Source: a bacterium (GTDB lineage: Bacteria; Oederibacteriota; CAKKQC01). Taken from it: 64,000 nucleotides of DNA. The notes beneath the pieces are model-generated. The model was not told the origin of the DNA and searched no databases. It was given only the letters and a program-made list of their open reading frames with translations. Position numbers and translations under genes: made by a program. Location of the stretch: the NCBI GenBank assembly GCA_919901855.1, contig CAKKQC010000041.1, positions 5,088 through 69,087 on the forward strand. The letters run 5' to 3'. This document shows, in pieces, positions 47,596 through 63,912 of the stretch (positions are counted from its first letter, which is position 1; every line of letters starts with the position of its first letter).

Positions 47596-49947
47596 TCAGG
47601 CCTGCCACTCCACCACCCACCGGCGAGTGCCGGTCACGGTCGCCGGGCTGACTCCCGGCAGGAGGACGCGCGCCTTCACGCCCCTGGGGAGCGAGAGCGA
47701 GACGTGGACCCGGCTCCCCCGGCGCGCCCACGCGCTCGTCACGAGTCCCTGCGGCGTCGGGATCGTCGCGCCGCCGCGAGTGCCGATGAACCGGGGGACG
47801 AAGGCGATCTCCTTCCAGGCGGGCGCGGTCTGCCAGATCCCGCCGATGATCCGCGCGAGATGGAAGATCGGGTGCGCGGACCAGGCGTGGGAGAGGCTGG
47901 TCTGGCCGGGCGTGTGCTCGCGCTCGAAGCCCTCGAAGGTCGTGCCGTGCGCGACCATGGGGGCCCAGCGCTCGCGGATGCAGGCCGCGACCTCGGCGCC
48001 GTACCCGCGGTCGGCGAGGACCTCGAAGACGTACGTGATCCAGTAGGCCGAGGGACGGACCGCCGGCGTCTCCCGGCCGCGCACGAAGGGCAGGAGGACC
48101 TTGTCGATCATGGCCTTCTCGGACTTTGGGTTCAGCCCCGCGATGATCGCGAGCGTCTGCGCGTGGATCGAGGTCGTGTCCACGATCGTGCCATCCCACC
48201 GGATTCCGTCGCGGACGAGCCCCTGCGCGTCCAGCAGGCCGGCGAGCGAGACGCGCAGGTCGCGCGCCCAGGCCTCCAGCGCCCCGGCCCACTCCCGGTG
48301 GCCGGCGATCCCGGCCAGCGCCGCCATGCGGTCGAGCGTGATCAGGAGCCAGAGGTTGTAGACCGCCGAGTAGCCGTCCTTGAACAGGCCCGTCCAGTCG
48401 AGGAAGAGCCACGTCCGCGGGTCGTAGGGCACCAGCCGGGTCTTGCGGTCGATCCGGTCAAGGAAGTACTCGAGCGCGCCCAGCACGGTCTCACCGTGCG
48501 TCCGGAATGCCTCGGGACTCCCGGTCTGCCAGTAGTGGTCCCAGAGCGTGAGCATCCAGATGAGCGTGAAGTCCGGCAGGACGCAGTGGTGGGCCATCGT
48601 CGGCGCGTGTCCGTAGGTCAGCCCGTCCGGCGTCGTCTGGCCCGCGATCTGGGCGATGCCGCGCCGCAGGAGGCGGGTGTCCGCGGACAGGTGGAACGTG
48701 TTCCACGCCTGCACCCGCGCGTCGCCCCACCACTGCGCCTGCTCCCGCCACGGCGTGTCGACGTAGGCGTCGAGCATGCAGCACTGCTGGGTCCAGGCCG
48801 AGGTTTCCCAGATCGCCTCGAGGACGGGGTCCGAGGAGGCAAACGAGCCCTTCCGTTCCAGCGGGTACCCGACCCAGTTGAGGTGGAACCGGACCCGGAC
48901 GGGACGGACCGTGTCGCGGACGGTGATCACCAGGTACCGGAATCCGAACGGGTGGTAGAACTCGTGGCCGGTCGTCCCCTTGCGGCACACGAGCCGGTTC
49001 CCGAACGCCATCCGGCACCCGGCCGGGTACGGGAGGTGGGGCGATAGCGATGCACGGTCGATCGACTCGACGTGCGCGAAGTCCACGATCTCCCCCCCGG
49101 CGGCACCATCGACGCGGACGGTCAGGTTCCCGACGTGGAGCTTTCCGAAGTCGACGAGATAGCTGCGGAACTTCCCCCGGCCGCCTGCGGGCACCCGAAG
49201 GTCGTCCGGCCGGCCCGTCGTGGGCGTGTGCGTGAGCGGTTCGCGCACCCGGACCTCGATCACGTCCCGGGCCGTCGCGTACCCCGTCGCGCTCCGGCCG
49301 GCGGCAACGCCGATCAGGGCCCGCGGAGCGACGATGCGCTCGGCGAGCATCGGAGTCCCGCGCGGTTCGAGCCCCGACCACGGCATCGCGTTCCACGCCC
49401 GGGCATCGGACCCCGGCCCCCACGCCGAGTCGTCGAACTTGAGGCTGCGCCAGTCCACAGGCTCGAGCCGGGCGTCGAAGTGCTCCTGGCCGAAGAGCTG
49501 GAAGCTCACGGGCGGCGCGCCCCGGTTGATCCCGCGCTCGCGCCGCGTCTTCCACGTCGCATCGCTCAGGACCTCGACCGTCCCCCACTTGCCCGCGACG
49601 AGGAGCCCCGCCACGCCCTGGGAGCGGTACTGGTAGGTGCTGAACCCGGGGTTGTGGGCGCGGATCGCGATCACGTTCGCCCCGCGTCGCAGGTACTTCG
49701 CCACGTCGACCTCGTCGTACGGCCAGTGCGACTGGTACCCGCGGGCGGGGCCGCGGCAGACGAACGTCCCGTTGATCCAGAGCCGGTACGACTGGTCGGC
49801 GGTGATGAAGAGCGGCGCGCTCCTGGGCACGCGCTCGAGGGTCACGGTCTTGCGGACGTCGATGTAGCAGTTGAGCAGGTCCCAGGCGTAGTGCTCGGCC
49901 CAGATCCACGCAGCCCGCTTCAGGACGGAAGGGATGCTGTCCATCAT
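47596..49947 (-). CDS. GH78 alpha-L-rhamnosidase family protein
   Basis: LFITADQSYRLWINGTFVCRGPARG is the N-terminal domain. DTPWREQAQWWGDARVQ and DFTLIWMLTLWDHYWQTG are six-hairpin core motifs. Confidence 0.85.
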   Translation of the reverse strand: MMDSIPSVLKRAAWIWAEHYAWDLLNCYIDVRKTVTLERVPRSAPLFITADQSYRLWINGTFVCRGPARGYQSHWPYDEVDVAKYLRRGANVIAIRAHNPGFSTYQYRSQGVAGLLVAGKWGTVEVLSDATWKTRRERGINRGAPPVSFQLFGQEHFDARLEPVDWRSLKFDDSAWGPGSDARAWNAMPWSGLEPRGTPMLAERIVAPRALIGVAAGRSATGYATARDVIEVRVREPLTHTPTTGRPDDLRVPAGGRGKFRSYLVDFGKLHVGNLTVRVDGAAGGEIVDFAHVESIDRASLSPHLPYPAGCRMAFGNRLVCRKGTTGHEFYHPFGFRYLVITVRDTVRPVRVRFHLNWVGYPLERKGSFASSDPVLEAIWETSAWTQQCCMLDAYVDTPWREQAQWWGDARVQAWNTFHLSADTRLLRRGIAQIAGQTTPDGLTYGHAPTMAHHCVLPDFTLIWMLTLWDHYWQTGSPEAFRTHGETVLGALEYFLDRIDRKTRLVPYDPRTWLFLDWTGLFKDGYSAVYNLWLLITLDRMAALAGIAGHREWAGALEAWARDLRVSLAGLLDAQGLVRDGIRWDGTIVDTTSIHAQTLAIIAGLNPKSEKAMIDKVLLPFVRGRETPAVRPSAYWITYVFEVLADRGYGAEVAACIRERWAPMVAHGTTFEGFEREHTPGQTSLSHAWSAHPIFHLARIIGGIWQTAPAWKEIAFVPRFIGTRGGATIPTPQGLVTSAWARRGSRVHVSLSLPRGVKARVLLPGVSPATVTGTRRWVVEWQA

Positions 49948-49953
49948 GCCATC

Positions 49954-51573
49954 CTACCCGAGTTTCCCTTCACGGAAGTCCTGGATGATCGATGCGTACG
50001 CTTCATTGGGCAACTCGTAGAAGTCGAACAGCATGAACAGTGGCTCTCCGAAACGTCTGACCATATCCGGAAGACTTGGCTCTATCTCTTCCAGTCGACA
50101 TGAAATCGCGACAGCATCCATTTCGTCAGAGGCGATCCGAGACTGAATTCGCGGACGGGCTCCAGGGCCCTCAAGAGCCCGACCCTGAACCCCAGCATGT
50201 GTGATTGAGATCCCGACAACACTGGTCCCTGGAAGTTGCAGCCGGGAGTACAGACGTACGCAGTAGAGCAGCGTCTCAGCCAAGCGGTACACTCGCAGAC
50301 GACAGGAGAGCTTGCTGGCATCCCTCTCGTTTTCGAAGAAGCTCTGAAGAAGATAGAACTCCCCGGTCTGGCGCAAAGCCCAGTAGTCGTAGGAGGCCTT
50401 CCCCCCGCCACTGATCTCCGCCAAGATCCCGTCTCGCCGAGGTTTGGGCCTGAAATCTGGTTCATCGAGCACGATGCCGACGGGCCACCCGAAGTTCATG
50501 ATCTGTGCGGCTCGCGCCGCCCCAAGCAGCTCCTTCTGAGTCCTACGAATCTCCGTTCCGACTAGCGTGAAGCGCACTTCCATATAGCCCCTGAGCTTCG
50601 CCTTCTGGATACCGATCTCCGCATCATGGCGATGGGCAGTGAACCATGCCTCATTCCACCGCACAGGTGCATTTCCGACACTCCGGGTGTTCGACCTCCT
50701 AGCTTGGGCTGCCAAGCCGAGAATCTCGTTTACCGCCATGTAGGACGCTGTCAGGACAGCCTCGCGCTCCTGAGGCGACGCAGACTGGAGGAAGTCCGCC
50801 ACATTGCCCGGCCCCCTGGCATCGCGCGAGCTGAAGGCCTCTCGTATTCTTTCGATCGCTTTCTGCACCAACGGTTCACCCAGCCACGGGCGGATCGCAT
50901 CCGCCACCGTACTGGCACCGTCTCCGTATTGACTGGCGATCGCGTAGATGTCGTAGGCATCCTTCTCCTTGAACCGCTCCCCGAGAACGATCCCCTTCAT
51001 CGTGAGGCATCCCGTCACATCCGCGATCTGCATCTGCACCTTCCCCTTCGATCCATTCGGCAGCAAGCCCTCGAACTCGATCTGTTCCTTGTGCTCGAAC
51101 GCTGCCTGGCAACCTTCGCACTTCCTCACGTGAAGACCGTCCTGTAACTCAAGATGCCGGTGCTGTCCGGCACGCGCATCTTCCTCGTGTGTCAGGAAAT
51201 CGATGTGGATCTTGTACTCCTTTTCATCAAGCCCGGAAACGATGGAGCGCGCGAAGGAATTCGGGATCGGCGTTCCATTCCTGTCCAGAACAGGTTGATA
51301 CCCTCGCCCTTCAAGCAGCGTTAGGATGGTCGCGTAGTGCTCCGCGCTGATCTTGGCAGGATCTACAGCGACGTCTATGTCGATTGAGCCGACGTGCGCG
51401 AATGGGGCACCCGGCCGAGGATTGCGTTCAAGGAGCAGGTACGGAACCCAACCTCCGACAAGAACCAAGGCTTCACGATACGAAGCCAGCATCGTCATCA
51501 ACTCGAGAAGGACGCTCTTCGAGGCTTCGATCAGGGGCTTCTCGAATGCTGAACGTGTGCGCATCTCGCTCAC
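49954..51573 (-). CDS. AbiEii/DUF1814-type nucleotidyltransferase (toxin candidate) with ~245-aa unassigned C-terminal domain
   Basis: NTase motifs LVLVGGW, HVGSIDIDVAV, KIHIDFL and MKGIVLGERFKEKDAYDIY lie in the first ~240 aa. Residues ~295-539 match nothing I recognise. Confidence 0.75.
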   Translation of the reverse strand: MSEMRTRSAFEKPLIEASKSVLLELMTMLASYREALVLVGGWVPYLLLERNPRPGAPFAHVGSIDIDVAVDPAKISAEHYATILTLLEGRGYQPVLDRNGTPIPNSFARSIVSGLDEKEYKIHIDFLTHEEDARAGQHRHLELQDGLHVRKCEGCQAAFEHKEQIEFEGLLPNGSKGKVQMQIADVTGCLTMKGIVLGERFKEKDAYDIYAIASQYGDGASTVADAIRPWLGEPLVQKAIERIREAFSSRDARGPGNVADFLQSASPQEREAVLTASYMAVNEILGLAAQARRSNTRSVGNAPVRWNEAWFTAHRHDAEIGIQKAKLRGYMEVRFTLVGTEIRRTQKELLGAARAAQIMNFGWPVGIVLDEPDFRPKPRRDGILAEISGGGKASYDYWALRQTGEFYLLQSFFENERDASKLSCRLRVYRLAETLLYCVRLYSRLQLPGTSVVGISITHAGVQGRALEGPGARPRIQSRIASDEMDAVAISCRLEEIEPSLPDMVRRFGEPLFMLFDFYELPNEAYASIIQDFREGKLG

Positions 51574-51575
51574 GC

Positions 51576-52661
51576 TCAGAACCTGAGCTTCTCTTTGCGC
51601 AGGAAGTCCGCCTGTTCCCGGCCGCGACCAGGATTCGCCGAAAGGTCCAGGTAGAGCTGTATGTTTCCGACAAGTGACTTGCCCTCAACATTCTGTGCGC
51701 CATAGAAGACGCCCATGTCGTACGGCAGGAGGAGAACGATGTTCCCTCCGGACTCCACCGGCCTCAAGTCCATCGCTTTGACCCACTCGTCTACCGCTCC
51801 AGCGTCAGGAACATACACCTCAACCGAGCCCACGCCGCGGACGAAAGGCGCAACCAAGCTGGCAGCGGCGAACGAGGTGATCGCATACTGCCACTTGCGA
51901 TCGGCACCAATAGCTGCGAGGGCAGTCATGCTGCGATCGGGATCACGCTCAAAAGAGAAGTAGGTGAATCTGCCCGTGCGAGACGGATCGTACGCATCCC
52001 TCCAGGCGTCGAGAAGTAAAGCGGGCTGAGCAAGGCGAAGAAGGCGGCCGTCCCGGCCGAGGAAACCATCTTCGATGAGCCGCGAGCACACCTTGGAGGC
52101 CAATCCAACGCTGACTCCAACCTCTCCGGCGAGCTCTGTGAGTTTCCATGCTCGCTTCGGTGCCTCCAACAGAGCCCTGATGAGTCGGCTTGAGACTGGG
52201 GTGAAGAGGGATCGCGGCCTTCCGCGCACAGGAAATGGATTGCTCTCGACCAGACGCTCGATGTAGATCCCGTCGAACTGGATGAAGCAGTTCCCAGCAA
52301 GGTCAAGGTAGCCGGTGTTCTCTTGCCGACAGATCTCCTGGACCTGAGGGCTTATGTAGGCCGAAGCGAGCATCGGGTACGCGCCAGGGATTGACTGCGC
52401 ACATGCCCTCAATTGACGGAGACTCTCCCGCACTCGTCCCGGCGGCAGGCTCGCCTTCACCTCAATGACAAGACGCCGTGGCTGCCGCAGAGAGGTGATG
52501 ACGTCGGCGATGATGTCGACCCCAACATCCCCAATCCGGACTTCCCGCTGGACCTTTGAAATCTTGAGTCCAGGGGCCAGATTCGGCAATTTGTTCGCGA
52601 TTGCTGCCTCAAGAGCCTGCGGGCTGATTCGAGGAGATATCACTATATTAGGCATGTTCAC
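51576..52661 (-). CDS. AbiEi-like antitoxin/regulator candidate with N-terminal PD-(D/E)xK-like module
   Basis: It lies 2 nt upstream of the NTase gene. GVDIIADV...RRLVIEVK is a D...ExK pattern. A wHTH-like stretch WKLTELAGEVGVSVGLASKVCSRLIEDGFL follows. The C-terminal part resembles AbiEi C-domains (VEVYVPD..., NIVLLLP, QLYLDL). GTG 52661 or ATG 52655 could be the start. Confidence 0.7.
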   Translation of the reverse strand: MNMPNIVISPRISPQALEAAIANKLPNLAPGLKISKVQREVRIGDVGVDIIADVITSLRQPRRLVIEVKASLPPGRVRESLRQLRACAQSIPGAYPMLASAYISPQVQEICRQENTGYLDLAGNCFIQFDGIYIERLVESNPFPVRGRPRSLFTPVSSRLIRALLEAPKRAWKLTELAGEVGVSVGLASKVCSRLIEDGFLGRDGRLLRLAQPALLLDAWRDAYDPSRTGRFTYFSFERDPDRSMTALAAIGADRKWQYAITSFAAASLVAPFVRGVGSVEVYVPDAGAVDEWVKAMDLRPVESGGNIVLLLPYDMGVFYGAQNVEGKSLVGNIQLYLDLSANPGRGREQADFLRKEKLRF

Positions 52662-52672
52662 TCGCCAGTGAA

Positions 52673-52702
52673 AGTATATCTAATAGGATAGCATCCTGTC
52701 AA
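52673..52702 (-). promoter_or_regulatory. near-consensus promoter TTGACA-18-TATACT with inverted repeat AGGAT-N3-ATCCT in the spacer
   Basis: On the minus strand TTGACA is at 52702-52697 and TATACT at 52678-52673. The inverted repeat is at 52685-52697. The promoter lies 11 nt before GTG 52661. Confidence 0.5.
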
Positions 52703-52714
52703 CCACCAGCCTAG

Positions 52715-53836
52715 TCACGGCCGGGCCTCCCCTCGAACGGCGAGCATCCCGGCGCGCACCATCCAGCCGACGAGGGCGAGCCCCAGGATGACGAGAACGA
52801 GAAAGACCGCGAGGGGGCCGGACTGTACCTTCAGCGGGAGCGAGGCGGGGTCGAACACGGACGCGATCTCGCGCGACTGGACCCACTGCCGGGAGGCTAC
52901 GTTGGCGGCGAGCGCCGCGAGCTGCACCGCCACGACCAGGTCGGCTCCCCCGGCCCGGCGCGAGGCTTTCCACGCCAGCCCCCACGCGACGACGGGCAGG
53001 AGCGCCGAGAGCATGGCCAGCCCGTGCGGCAGGGGCATGGCGAAGACCGCACCGCGGACATCGGCGGAGAGCGCGCCGAAGATGTACCAGAGGCCCATGG
53101 CCCCGAAAAGCGCGAGCCCGAGCGTGTGGATCCGGAATGCCCAGCGCCGCGCCCAGACCCGATAGCCTTCACTCTCGCGCGCCGCGAGGACCTGGGCGTC
53201 GAAGAGCAGGTACGCGGCCGTAGTGGTGACCCCGAGCCCGAGCATCATGAGCCAGCGCGGGACCAGCGTGGGATCCCCGAGGTTGAGCGCCAGGCCGCCC
53301 ACAGCCCCAAAGCGGGCCGTGCCGTCGAAGATCGCGAGCATGCGCCCCCCGTTCGCCATGAGCGAGAAGCCGTTGGCGAAGATGAACCCGACGGCCAGCA
53401 CGAGCCCGGCGGCGGCCGCGCCCGCCACGAGCCGCAGCCGCCCCGGCCACCCCGCGGACGGGAGCATGGCAAAGGCGTACACGCCCGCGTAGGCCACGAG
53501 GAGGAGCGGGACGATGGAGAACCACGGCCACGCGACCAGGATCGTGGCCGGGTACGCGACCGGCGCGAAGACGACCTGGAGGAAGAGGAGGGGCACGATG
53601 CCGAGGTTGACGGCCACCGCGACCGCGACCGGCAGGGCGCCGCCCAGCCGGGCCGCCAGCCGCCGGCCGTGCTCCCCCCCCAGGAGGGCCGCCGCGATCG
53701 CGACCGGAATCCCGGCATACACGAGGTGCATGGCCGCGACGTGGAGGAAGAACCCGACGCCCTTGAGCACGAGCAGGAGCCCGAGGGGCGCCGGAAGACC
53801 CGCCACGGGCGGAGCGAGCGGGAACTCAGGTCCCAT
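52715..53836 (-). CDS. polytopic membrane protein, partner of the CydA-like/cytochrome c protein
   Basis: About 9-10 hydrophobic helices. It overlaps the upstream gene by 11 nt. The N-terminal helix with LHVAAMHLVYAGIP is faintly CydA-like. Otherwise unassigned. Confidence 0.7.
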   Translation of the reverse strand: MGPEFPLAPPVAGLPAPLGLLLVLKGVGFFLHVAAMHLVYAGIPVAIAAALLGGEHGRRLAARLGGALPVAVAVAVNLGIVPLLFLQVVFAPVAYPATILVAWPWFSIVPLLLVAYAGVYAFAMLPSAGWPGRLRLVAGAAAAGLVLAVGFIFANGFSLMANGGRMLAIFDGTARFGAVGGLALNLGDPTLVPRWLMMLGLGVTTTAAYLLFDAQVLAARESEGYRVWARRWAFRIHTLGLALFGAMGLWYIFGALSADVRGAVFAMPLPHGLAMLSALLPVVAWGLAWKASRRAGGADLVVAVQLAALAANVASRQWVQSREIASVFDPASLPLKVQSGPLAVFLVLVILGLALVGWMVRAGMLAVRGEARP

Positions 53837-63147: not shown

Positions 63148-63912
63148 ATGGACACGATCACGTGCCCGTTCTGTCAGTATAAGTGCAAGCCGACGGCCGT
63201 TCTCTGTCCGTCCTGCGGGCTGACGTTCCAGCGCTGGATCGAGGCCAATCCCGGGAAGAGCATCGAGGGATTCAACCCGCCCGCCGACGTCCCGGCACCT
63301 CCTCCCGCCGCGGTTGAGCCTGCCGCCTCGACTGGACCGGCTGCGTCAGAACCCGCCGTTCCGACCGCGACGGAACCTGCCGTCGCGGCGGCGGATCAGG
63401 TGCCGCCACAAGCCCAAAGCCGGTCGGAACCCGCCGTCGCAACTGCCTCACCTCTCCCGGGGTCGGTGGCGGCCCAACGGCGGCCGCCGCCCGGGATGAA
63501 ACCCGAGCTCGATCCCAAGGCCAAGGCCCTGATCGAGCTCTACAAGACCGAAGCCACCTTCCGCACGAACCGCGGCGACGCCGAAAAGGCCCCGGGACGG
63601 GCCGGACTCCTCCTCATCGCCATGGCGGTCGTGAACATCGTCTTCGGCCTCATCCTCGCGACCCAGCGGTTCCCAGGCGACTCCCTCGCGTTCGTGAGCG
63701 CCTTCTTCGGCGCCATCGCCTTCTTCTTCAGTGCCATCGGGGCATTCCAGGCGCGGCGGCAGTTCGTGGTGGCCGGCATCGTGATGGCGGTGGTCGACAT
63801 TGCGATCTGCGGTTCGGTCTACGGCAAGCTCGGCGGAAGCCTGCATAACGCTATCGGACTCAAGTTCATCATGCTCGCCTTTCTCGCCAAACTCATGCTC
63901 GACATCGGCTAA
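63148..63912 (+). CDS. zinc-ribbon / Pro-Ala-rich linker / 3-4 TM membrane protein, function unknown
   Basis: CPFCQYKCKPTAVLCPSCG forms two CxxC pairs. A long P/A/E linker follows, then hydrophobic helices LLLIAMAVVNIVFGLIL etc. Confidence 0.7.
   Translation: MDTITCPFCQYKCKPTAVLCPSCGLTFQRWIEANPGKSIEGFNPPADVPAPPPAAVEPAASTGPAASEPAVPTATEPAVAAADQVPPQAQSRSEPAVATASPLPGSVAAQRRPPPGMKPELDPKAKALIELYKTEATFRTNRGDAEKAPGRAGLLLIAMAVVNIVFGLILATQRFPGDSLAFVSAFFGAIAFFFSAIGAFQARRQFVVAGIVMAVVDIAICGSVYGKLGGSLHNAIGLKFIMLAFLAKLMLDIG

Follow-up and report, generated by a model that had tools for sequence, protein, structure and literature searches.

The locus described here lies on the reverse strand of a 64,000-nucleotide stretch of bacterial DNA (GTDB lineage Oederibacteriota; contig CAKKQC010000041.1 of assembly GCA_919901855.1, positions 5,088 to 69,087), which we refer to at its full length as the window, and consists of two adjacent genes that together resemble a toxin-antitoxin system of the AbiE type. 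The upstream gene, at 51576..52661 (-), encodes a 361-aa protein with a winged helix-turn-helix (HTH) and an AbiEi_2 antitoxin domain (Pfam AbiEi_2, PF09952, E 7.9e-11), and its stop codon falls 2 nt before the GTG of the second gene, at 49954..51573 (-) including the stop codon, whose 539-aa product joins a toxin-like nucleotidyltransferase (NTase) to a C-terminal domain. From its N-terminus, this protein comprises an AbiEii/MenT-like NTase domain of the Pol-beta superfamily (aa 1-285; 50719..51573, -), assigned from a sub-threshold Pfam match, sequence motifs and fold resemblance, a linker (aa ~286-303; 50665..50718, -) and the C-terminal domain itself (aa ~304-539; 49957..50664, -), which is defined by an AlphaFold2 (AF2) model and 735 homologue clusters. 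We describe the system as a toxin of the AbiE type to which a candidate sensor is fused, and the domain family to which this candidate belongs as one that was previously unnamed.

Integrity of the fusion gene

The open reading frame extends from a GTG at 51573 to a stop codon at 49954-49956, with an alternative start at the ATG at 51564 giving a product of 536 aa. As the majority of NTase homologues are about 300 aa in length and have no such tail, the long frame could be explained by a frameshift merging two genes, or by the tail being part of the AbiEii/DUF1814 family model, both of which were raised in the initial annotation. However, a 2,851-bp stretch covering both genes shows 0 substitutions and 0 indels when the separate assemblies of four sequencing runs, made from two samples (groundwater metagenomes, up to ~25x depth), are compared, and the NTase plus C-terminal-domain architecture is kept, at 44-49% identity, in four homologues (P0002-P0005) on contigs of other samples. 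At the junction, the sequence AGGAGG forms two arginine codons, the ATG found 22 nt on is out of frame and the nearest in-frame GTG is 33 nt on; there is no plausible internal start here, nor a usable combination of ribosome-binding site and start codon. The Pfam AbiEii match, for its part, is limited to aa 63-263. On the strength of the identical assemblies and the conserved fusion we reject the merged-gene explanation, and regard an artefact of either kind as extremely improbable.

The two parts of the protein separate cleanly in alignments. Those with NTase-only homologues end at aa ~285, those with homologues of the C-terminal domain begin at aa ~298-310, and predicted local distance difference test (pLDDT) scores are low in the linker, where the NTase model ends and where the C-terminal one begins. 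The initial annotation, which let the NTase-like region run to about residue 295, was thus right in recognising an NTase followed by a separate tail, and its boundary moves to the end of homology at about residue 285.

A distant AbiEii relative with an exchangeable C-terminus

The Pfam AbiEii family (PF08843) matches the fusion protein with an E value of 0.009 and 16.4 bits, under the gathering cut-off of 22.5, and for this reason the window toxin is best described as a distant relative of the curated AbiEii family rather than as a member of it. The description of the domain as AbiEii-like in the initial annotation nevertheless holds at the level of motifs and operon layout. Most of the 111 NTase homologues are stand-alone proteins of ~300 aa that align to aa 1-285, and precomputed annotations assign PF08843 to a few of them and PF12281 to others. 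In an alignment of 42 NTase homologues, G40-G41, D65-x-D67, D125 and K204-D205-x-x-D208 are invariant, so that the Pol-beta NTase signature (hG[GS], [DE]x[DE] and a third carboxylate) and the AbiEii K..D..D motif, as AbiEii nucleotidyltransferases were reportedly defined by Dy et al. in 2014, are both present. The AF2 model of the domain (pLDDT 91.4) has as its top three fold matches in the PDB the structures 6j7q, 6j7r and 6j7o of TglT/MenT3, an AbiEii-family toxin of M. tuberculosis (probability 0.96-0.98), aligned over their full length with E values of about 2e-3 and template-modelling (TM) scores of 0.35-0.40; DNA polymerases beta and lambda rank next. A profile of the NTase family found no match among PDB sequences.

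The window locus shares with AbiE and with the mycobacterial MenA/MenT (TakA/TglT) systems a bicistronic layout, in which a gene of the AbiEi family (PF09952) with a winged HTH directly precedes a Pol-beta-type NTase, as well as the GG, DxD, D and K-D..D motifs, the nearest PDB folds being those of TglT/MenT3 at the scores given above. It differs from them in a toxin that scores below the Pfam AbiEii threshold, in the AbiEi_2 type of its antitoxin, with an extra N-terminal D..ExK region, and in the extra C-terminal domain of ~235 aa, characterised AbiEii/MenT toxins having no domain of this kind. Orthologues of the upstream protein (53-59% identity) are encoded directly upstream of every full-length homologue examined, an AbiEi_2 gene occupies this position at the P0002, P0003, P0005, P0013 and P0083 loci, and such a gene is likewise found before NTase-only relatives and relatives with other tails.

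These relatives reveal a more general property of the toxin. The AbiEi_2-NTase operon occurs without a tail (P0013), with the tail described here, with two unrelated tails of ~240-280 aa and with one of ~100 aa, and because the same operon can thus be tail-less or carry different, unrelated tails, the C-terminal slot of the toxin is an exchangeable accessory position. The other add-ons, of which there are at least three mutually unrelated kinds of ~240-280 or ~100 aa (P0012/P0017/P0057; P0076, P0080 and P0083-P0088; P0008-P0010), gave no match in Pfam. Two of them, tail types B and C, were considered as remote homologues of the present domain and rejected, with hhalign probabilities of 0.3-3.8%. 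At the P0083 loci (L069-L071), the toxin gene has an AbiEi_2 gene before it and a conserved 230-aa gene of unknown family after it.

The C-terminal domain

Residues ~300-538 align separately with the C-terminal ends of other proteins, in which the N-terminal part bears no relation to the NTase, and when folded separately by AF2 the domain yields a confident model (mean pLDDT 93.5, predicted TM score 0.91). The predicted alpha+beta fold begins with a long N-terminal helix, followed by a beta-alpha-beta4/5-alpha unit, three strands and two C-terminal helices. Scans of the window-protein tail with Pfam-A, NCBIfam and PADLOC gave no match at E<=1, and the same databases gave no match within the C-terminal domain of about 30 other family members. 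With separate alignment, separate folding and no family match, the tail is, as first proposed, an additional domain that existing models do not assign. An origin of the tail as a copy of the AbiEi_2 antitoxin domain, fused to the NTase, was also rejected (hhalign probability 0.5%).

A Foldseek comparison of the model with the PDB, a check suggested in the initial annotation, returned no match at E<=1e-3 and no convincing neighbour. The top weak matches are to TBP, to the N-terminal domain of spermine synthase and AdoMetDC, and to the NRD of RnlA, with TM scores of 0.2-0.3 and a shared order of elements, beta-alpha-beta4-alpha. Those to TBP have E values of 2e-3 to 0.1, probabilities of 0.1-0.4 and TM scores of 0.18-0.31, while the highest-probability match (0.97 over 121 columns) is to the N-terminal, dimerisation domain of spermine synthase. 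Foldseek against BFVD gave the same picture, with viral TBP-like matches of similar weakness and weak giant-virus matches, and phmmer and profile searches of PDB sequences matched only the SEFIR and TIR partner parts of family members. The model therefore has at most a TBP-like topology, which we do not take as homology. For the known receptor domains SAVED, CARF, STING, cNMP-binding and SLOG, there was neither a sequence match (Pfam, NCBIfam and PADLOC, E<=1) nor one among the PDB folds found by Foldseek.

Members of the family are recognised by a set of signature motifs, FGWP(I/V)G, RP.P..DGI.AE, SYDYWAL...G.FYLL.S.FE(D/N), R..R..E, H.G(L/V).GR.L and PLF.LFDF. Across 145 sequences drawn from all fusion classes and phyla, 24 positions are at least 90% identical (W310, A318, E332, L349, G362, W363, P364, P376, G382, I383, D396, W398, G404, E414, R427, E433, L441, Y442, G461, R465, L467, V505, F513 and F516). 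This near-invariant set includes four acidic residues, two arginines and several Trp/Tyr residues, and E332, D396, E414, E433, R427 and R465 are conserved in at least 92% of the sequences, over many phyla. The window protein carries all 24, its sole notable deviation being N415, where 87% of members have Asp. In a member from the Aminicenantales (L046, 1446-2708), the domain is matched in two overlapping pieces, at profile positions 8-127 and 114-243, which suggests that its central part has received an insertion or been locally duplicated.

A widespread and mobile family

A phmmer scan of 1.84 billion representatives, with clustering at 50% identity, recovered at least 735 clusters of homologues at E<=1e-3, of which 121 reach E<=1e-30. 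Of 191 members, nearly all end with the domain (median residual tail 0 aa, with six exceptions). A pattern scan of species-representative genomes returned 49 loci, spread over Nitrospirota, Chloroflexota, Actinomycetota, Acidobacteriota, Alpha-, Gamma- and 'Delta'-proteobacteria, Omnitrophota, lineages of the candidate phyla radiation, Bdellovibrionota, Gemmatimonadota and one archaeon of the Methanosarcinales. More divergent members are carried by two plasmids, one from Deinococcus wulumuqiensis and one from Haloarcula marismortui (profile E 6e-29 and 5e-22), and culturable carriers include Bradyrhizobium sp. C9, Variovorax sp. tm, Bdellovibrio bacteriovorus Bd5, and the D. wulumuqiensis and H. 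marismortui plasmids pDrdVI and pHMA155. No match to the domain was found in 50,697 phage genome records, and literature searches (bSEFIR, SEFIR + NADase, SEFIR/RelA/Schlafen/AbiEii) found no description of it. The C-terminal domain is a real, autonomous, mobile and widespread family that had not been named, and it merits an entry in Pfam/InterPro, since the names that its members now bear ('ATP-binding protein', 'RNA-binding domain-containing protein', 'TIR domain') describe the N-terminal half alone. The two plasmid proteins, each a Schlafen AlbA_2 domain followed by the domain (L074, 3341-4738, on pDrdVI; L075, 3392-4729, on pHMA155), illustrate this, as their RefSeq names, 'RNA-binding domain-containing protein' and 'ATP-binding protein', refer only to the N-terminal half and their C-terminal 235 aa are unannotated.

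One domain, many partners

The N-terminal parts of 125 members with N-terminal extensions were clustered and scanned for known families. Short TIR-like domains make up the largest group (53/125), matching the PADLOC CBASS 'TIR effector' model and, weakly, the Pfam families CAP12/Pycsar-TIR and nucleoside 2-deoxyribosyltransferase; SEFIR/TIR_2 domains follow (39/125), then RelA_SpoT (12/125), the AbiEii-like NTase family of the window protein (6/125) and ParA-like ATPases (5/125), and there are one or two each of PIN_4, Schlafen AlbA_2 (SLFN_AlbA_2), protein kinase (Pkinase), GGDEF and HTH_3. Some partners match PADLOC models for CBASS TIR effectors and CARF_PIN, and the 49 species-representative loci show similar proportions.

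One function that could be served by such a domain is to recruit a substrate or target, for example by binding nucleic acid or tRNA and so bringing the enzyme to it. Characterised members of the AbiEii/MenT, RelA_SpoT toxSAS, PIN and Schlafen families attack tRNA or RNA, and these partners would all fit RNA targeting, as would the faint resemblances to TBP, the RnlA NRD and AdoMetDC-like alpha+beta sandwiches, TBP-like folds being ones that often bind nucleic acids. Yet TIR-like and SEFIR domains, which are known to act on NAD+, account for 92 of the 125 partners, or about three quarters, and the GGDEF, HTH, kinase and ParA-like partners share no RNA target. The TBP matches themselves have probabilities of only 0.1-0.4 at TM scores of about 0.2, and the conserved residues are mainly acidic and aromatic, instead of forming the basic surface expected for nucleic-acid binding. 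We consider recruitment unlikely.

The preponderance of TIR and SEFIR partners could also point to a constitutive scaffold, in which the domain oligomerises to assemble the N-terminal enzymes and senses nothing. TIR and SEFIR NADases need self-association, and known systems are activated by assembly; the prominence of the spermine synthase dimerisation domain among the fold matches is in keeping with this. A scaffold would, however, leave some 24 near-invariant positions unexplained, including charged residues that are unlikely to be buried, and it fits poorly with HTH and GGDEF fusions that look like one-component regulators and with pairs in which toxin and partner are split. As an always-on toxin assembly would, moreover, be lethal unless controlled in some further way, we hold a purely structural role to be quite unlikely.

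The initial annotation had asked whether the domain occurs alone or fused to other effectors, and it does both, being joined to at least ten effector or output types and also encoded by a separate downstream gene. The stand-alone versions, of ~230-250 aa, are each directly preceded by an effector gene. In B. bacteriovorus Bd5 (L059, 5444-6663) and two relatives (L055 and L060), a TIR-like gene is followed by the domain gene, at L065 (3101-4741) the preceding gene encodes a TIR-like domain with a helical extension, and at L068 (1045-2418) it encodes Schlafen AlbA_2. Because these stand-alone genes directly follow effector genes, the domain would seem to work as a partner of its effector in trans as well as in cis. 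Apart from the effector genes of the split forms, no conserved neighbour (cyclase, other signal synthase or hydrolase) was found around the 49 loci, and since no signal synthase is conserved there, the fusions are, as far as gene content can tell, self-contained.

Several loci lie beside other defence genes. Type I restriction-modification genes adjoin P0002, P0116 and the NTase-only P0013, an AbiEi_4 gene and PDDEXK+DEAD nuclease-helicase genes are found near P0005, and the Deinococcus plasmid carries an Eco57I-type methylase and a helicase. At L064 (1-6215), the TIR-like fusion gene of P0116 ends a co-directional block of HsdR/M/S, Peptidase_M78 and DUF4411 genes, which is a compact defence island. 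At one locus only (L010, 5001-6955), a gene for a HAD-family hydrolase overlaps the end of a TIR-like fusion gene (P0117) by 4 nt, an arrangement that brings to mind Metis and Vesta, systems with phosphatase partners.

Within three of the four classes compared, the domain diverges faster than its effector, with identities for domain and effector, respectively, of 44.5 vs 57.4% in the NTase class, 45.8 vs 65.1% in the TIR-like class and 53.8 vs 61.9% in the SEFIR class. A further suggestion is that the domain is itself an enzyme, be it a second effector or one acting on a signal, by producing or degrading it, and that the conserved acidic residues form the active site. The conservation of E332, D396, E414 and E433, together with R427 and R465, would fit such a site. 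Against it, the domain diverges faster than its enzymatic partners, is always paired with a known effector or output and never fused to a recognised sensor domain, and shows no similarity to an enzyme family in Pfam, NCBIfam, PADLOC, PDB sequences or PDB folds. A catalytic role for the domain is, in our judgement, improbable.

A candidate sensor gating diverse effectors

The function that we favour, and to which we give an even chance, is that of a sensor or regulatory input module that gates the fused effector. It is suggested by the domain architecture, since one and the same C-terminal domain follows many different effectors and also exists as a split downstream gene. The GGDEF, HTH and kinase partners fit the classic input-output logic of one-component signalling. 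Among the three roles first listed for the tail (sensor, target-recognition domain or second effector), it is thus the first that the architecture favours, with the function itself drawn from that architecture. A conserved ligand is suggested by the acidic, arginine and aromatic residues that the family retains. Because the 24 positions stay at least 90% identical despite the faster divergence of the domain as a whole, a small molecule, or some other cue of host or infection that does not vary, is a more probable trigger than a fast-evolving phage protein.

Several observations weigh against a sensor. The four acidic residues in the near-invariant set would fit a metal site for catalysis just as well, and the weak TBP-like resemblance also fits nucleic-acid binding. 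The window operon keeps a separate AbiEi_2 antitoxin, so that a domain inhibiting the toxin in cis is not obviously needed, and in the RelA_SpoT class domain and effector diverge equally. The association with defence islands, finally, is judged on a handful of loci, without statistics.

The window locus is best explained as an AbiE-type two-gene toxin-antitoxin or abortive-infection module, encoding an AbiEi_2 regulator-antitoxin followed by a distant AbiEii/MenT-like toxin that has acquired its ~235-aa C-terminal domain from a large unnamed family. In AbiE, the AbiEi antitoxin represses the operon and neutralises the toxin (PMC13064643), and the AbiEi_2 protein would presumably do the same here. 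The C-terminal domain could then subject the NTase to a second level of control, one that depends on a trigger. While the system rests, the domain would contact and restrain the N-terminal enzyme, and binding of the trigger would cause it to release or activate that enzyme, although the direction of control could be otherwise. By analogy with the MenT toxins, the freed NTase may block translation by nucleotidylating tRNA.

If the domain is indeed a sensor, this would be an AbiE-type toxin-antitoxin with trigger sensing built in, and would bear on the poorly understood release of AbiE/MenT-like toxins during infection. More broadly, single-gene proteins of the TIR, SEFIR, toxSAS, PIN and Schlafen kinds, in their hundreds, would join one defence or signalling family with a common trigger, and if the trigger is shared, finding it for one member would explain all. 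A bolder version, which we regard as possible but doubtful, is that, in bacteria and archaea alike, the domain receives a single conserved signal of infection or stress, such as a small metabolite (derived from a nucleotide, for instance), and so triggers at least ten effector chemistries. These would include NAD+ depletion by TIR and SEFIR domains, tRNA modification by AbiEii-like and RelA/SpoT enzymes, RNA cleavage by PIN and Schlafen domains, and cyclic di-GMP or transcriptional outputs. Were this so, the domain would represent a new class of sensor on a par with SAVED and CARF, operating with no dedicated signal synthase.

Comparison with known regulatory architectures

The closest parallel for a toxin controlled by its own C-terminus is CapRel, in which a toxSAS toxin and a C-terminal antitoxin/sensor domain form a single protein, related pairs having toxin and partner split. 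The present family has the same order of N-terminal toxin and C-terminal, putatively regulatory domain, and includes both a RelA_SpoT-fused subclass and split pairs. Unlike the small, zinc-finger-like antitoxin domain of CapRel, however, the domain described here is an alpha+beta domain of ~235 aa with strongly conserved polar motifs, and it is common to at least ten types of effector.

For the SEFIR class, the relevant comparison is with bSEFIR, a single-gene anti-phage system (Millman et al. 2022, 10.1101/2022.05.11.491447; PADLOC PDLC03957). The 39 SEFIR/TIR_2 members match its model with E values of about 1e-72 and resemble it in their single-gene layout and length of ~420 aa; the match covers only the SEFIR half, profile positions 35-203 of 412, and the remaining, C-terminal half gives no alignment to the domain. 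Compared via the PADLOC model, they therefore appear to be SEFIR proteins whose C-terminal domain either differs from that of bSEFIR or has diverged very far from it. PADLOC gives no match for the window protein.

The logic of one receptor domain serving many effectors, TIR and PIN among them, is shared with the SAVED, CARF, STING and cNMP-binding receptors, and TIR-SAVED offers a parallel receptor-effector fusion architecture. No sequence or fold similarity connects the present domain with these receptors, however, and no signal-synthase gene is conserved nearby. The C-terminal domain of VstA from the Vesta system has been described as uncharacterised and possibly ligand-binding (2026 preprint, 10.64898/2026.09.04.749371). 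The PUA-like sensor of Metis was considered as a match for the domain and found to be unrelated.

The upstream gene and the genomic islet

The upstream AbiEi_2 protein has an unannotated N-terminal region of ~150 aa, followed by the winged HTH (~aa 159-205) and the AbiEi_2 domain (aa 209-357). The first 150 residues (52212-52661, -) have no family match, and a D48...E67-x-K69 pattern is kept within them in all five orthologues compared; lying before the winged HTH, it is reminiscent of the core of PD-(D/E)xK nuclease-like proteins.

The two-gene operon is preceded by a sigma-70-like promoter, TTGACA-18 nt-TATACT (52673..52702, -), which matches the consensus at 11 of 12 positions. One such site was found in a scan of the region against 0.8 expected, making the match suggestive only. 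The spacer holds an inverted repeat, AGGAT-GCT-ATCCT, at which the AbiEi_2 protein may regulate its own operon, although so short a repeat could have arisen by chance.

Only these two genes occupy an islet of low GC content at 49950..52710, at ~58-62% GC in the composition profile compared with 70-75% in the flanks. No tRNA gene, integrase or flanking direct repeat was found at this 2.7-kb islet; the sole tRNA gene of the window, tRNA-Tyr (GTA) at 63482-63579 (-), is far from it and has no apparent link to it. Flanking the islet are a glycoside-hydrolase-like gene at 47596-49947 (-) and a membrane-protein gene at 52715-53836 (-).

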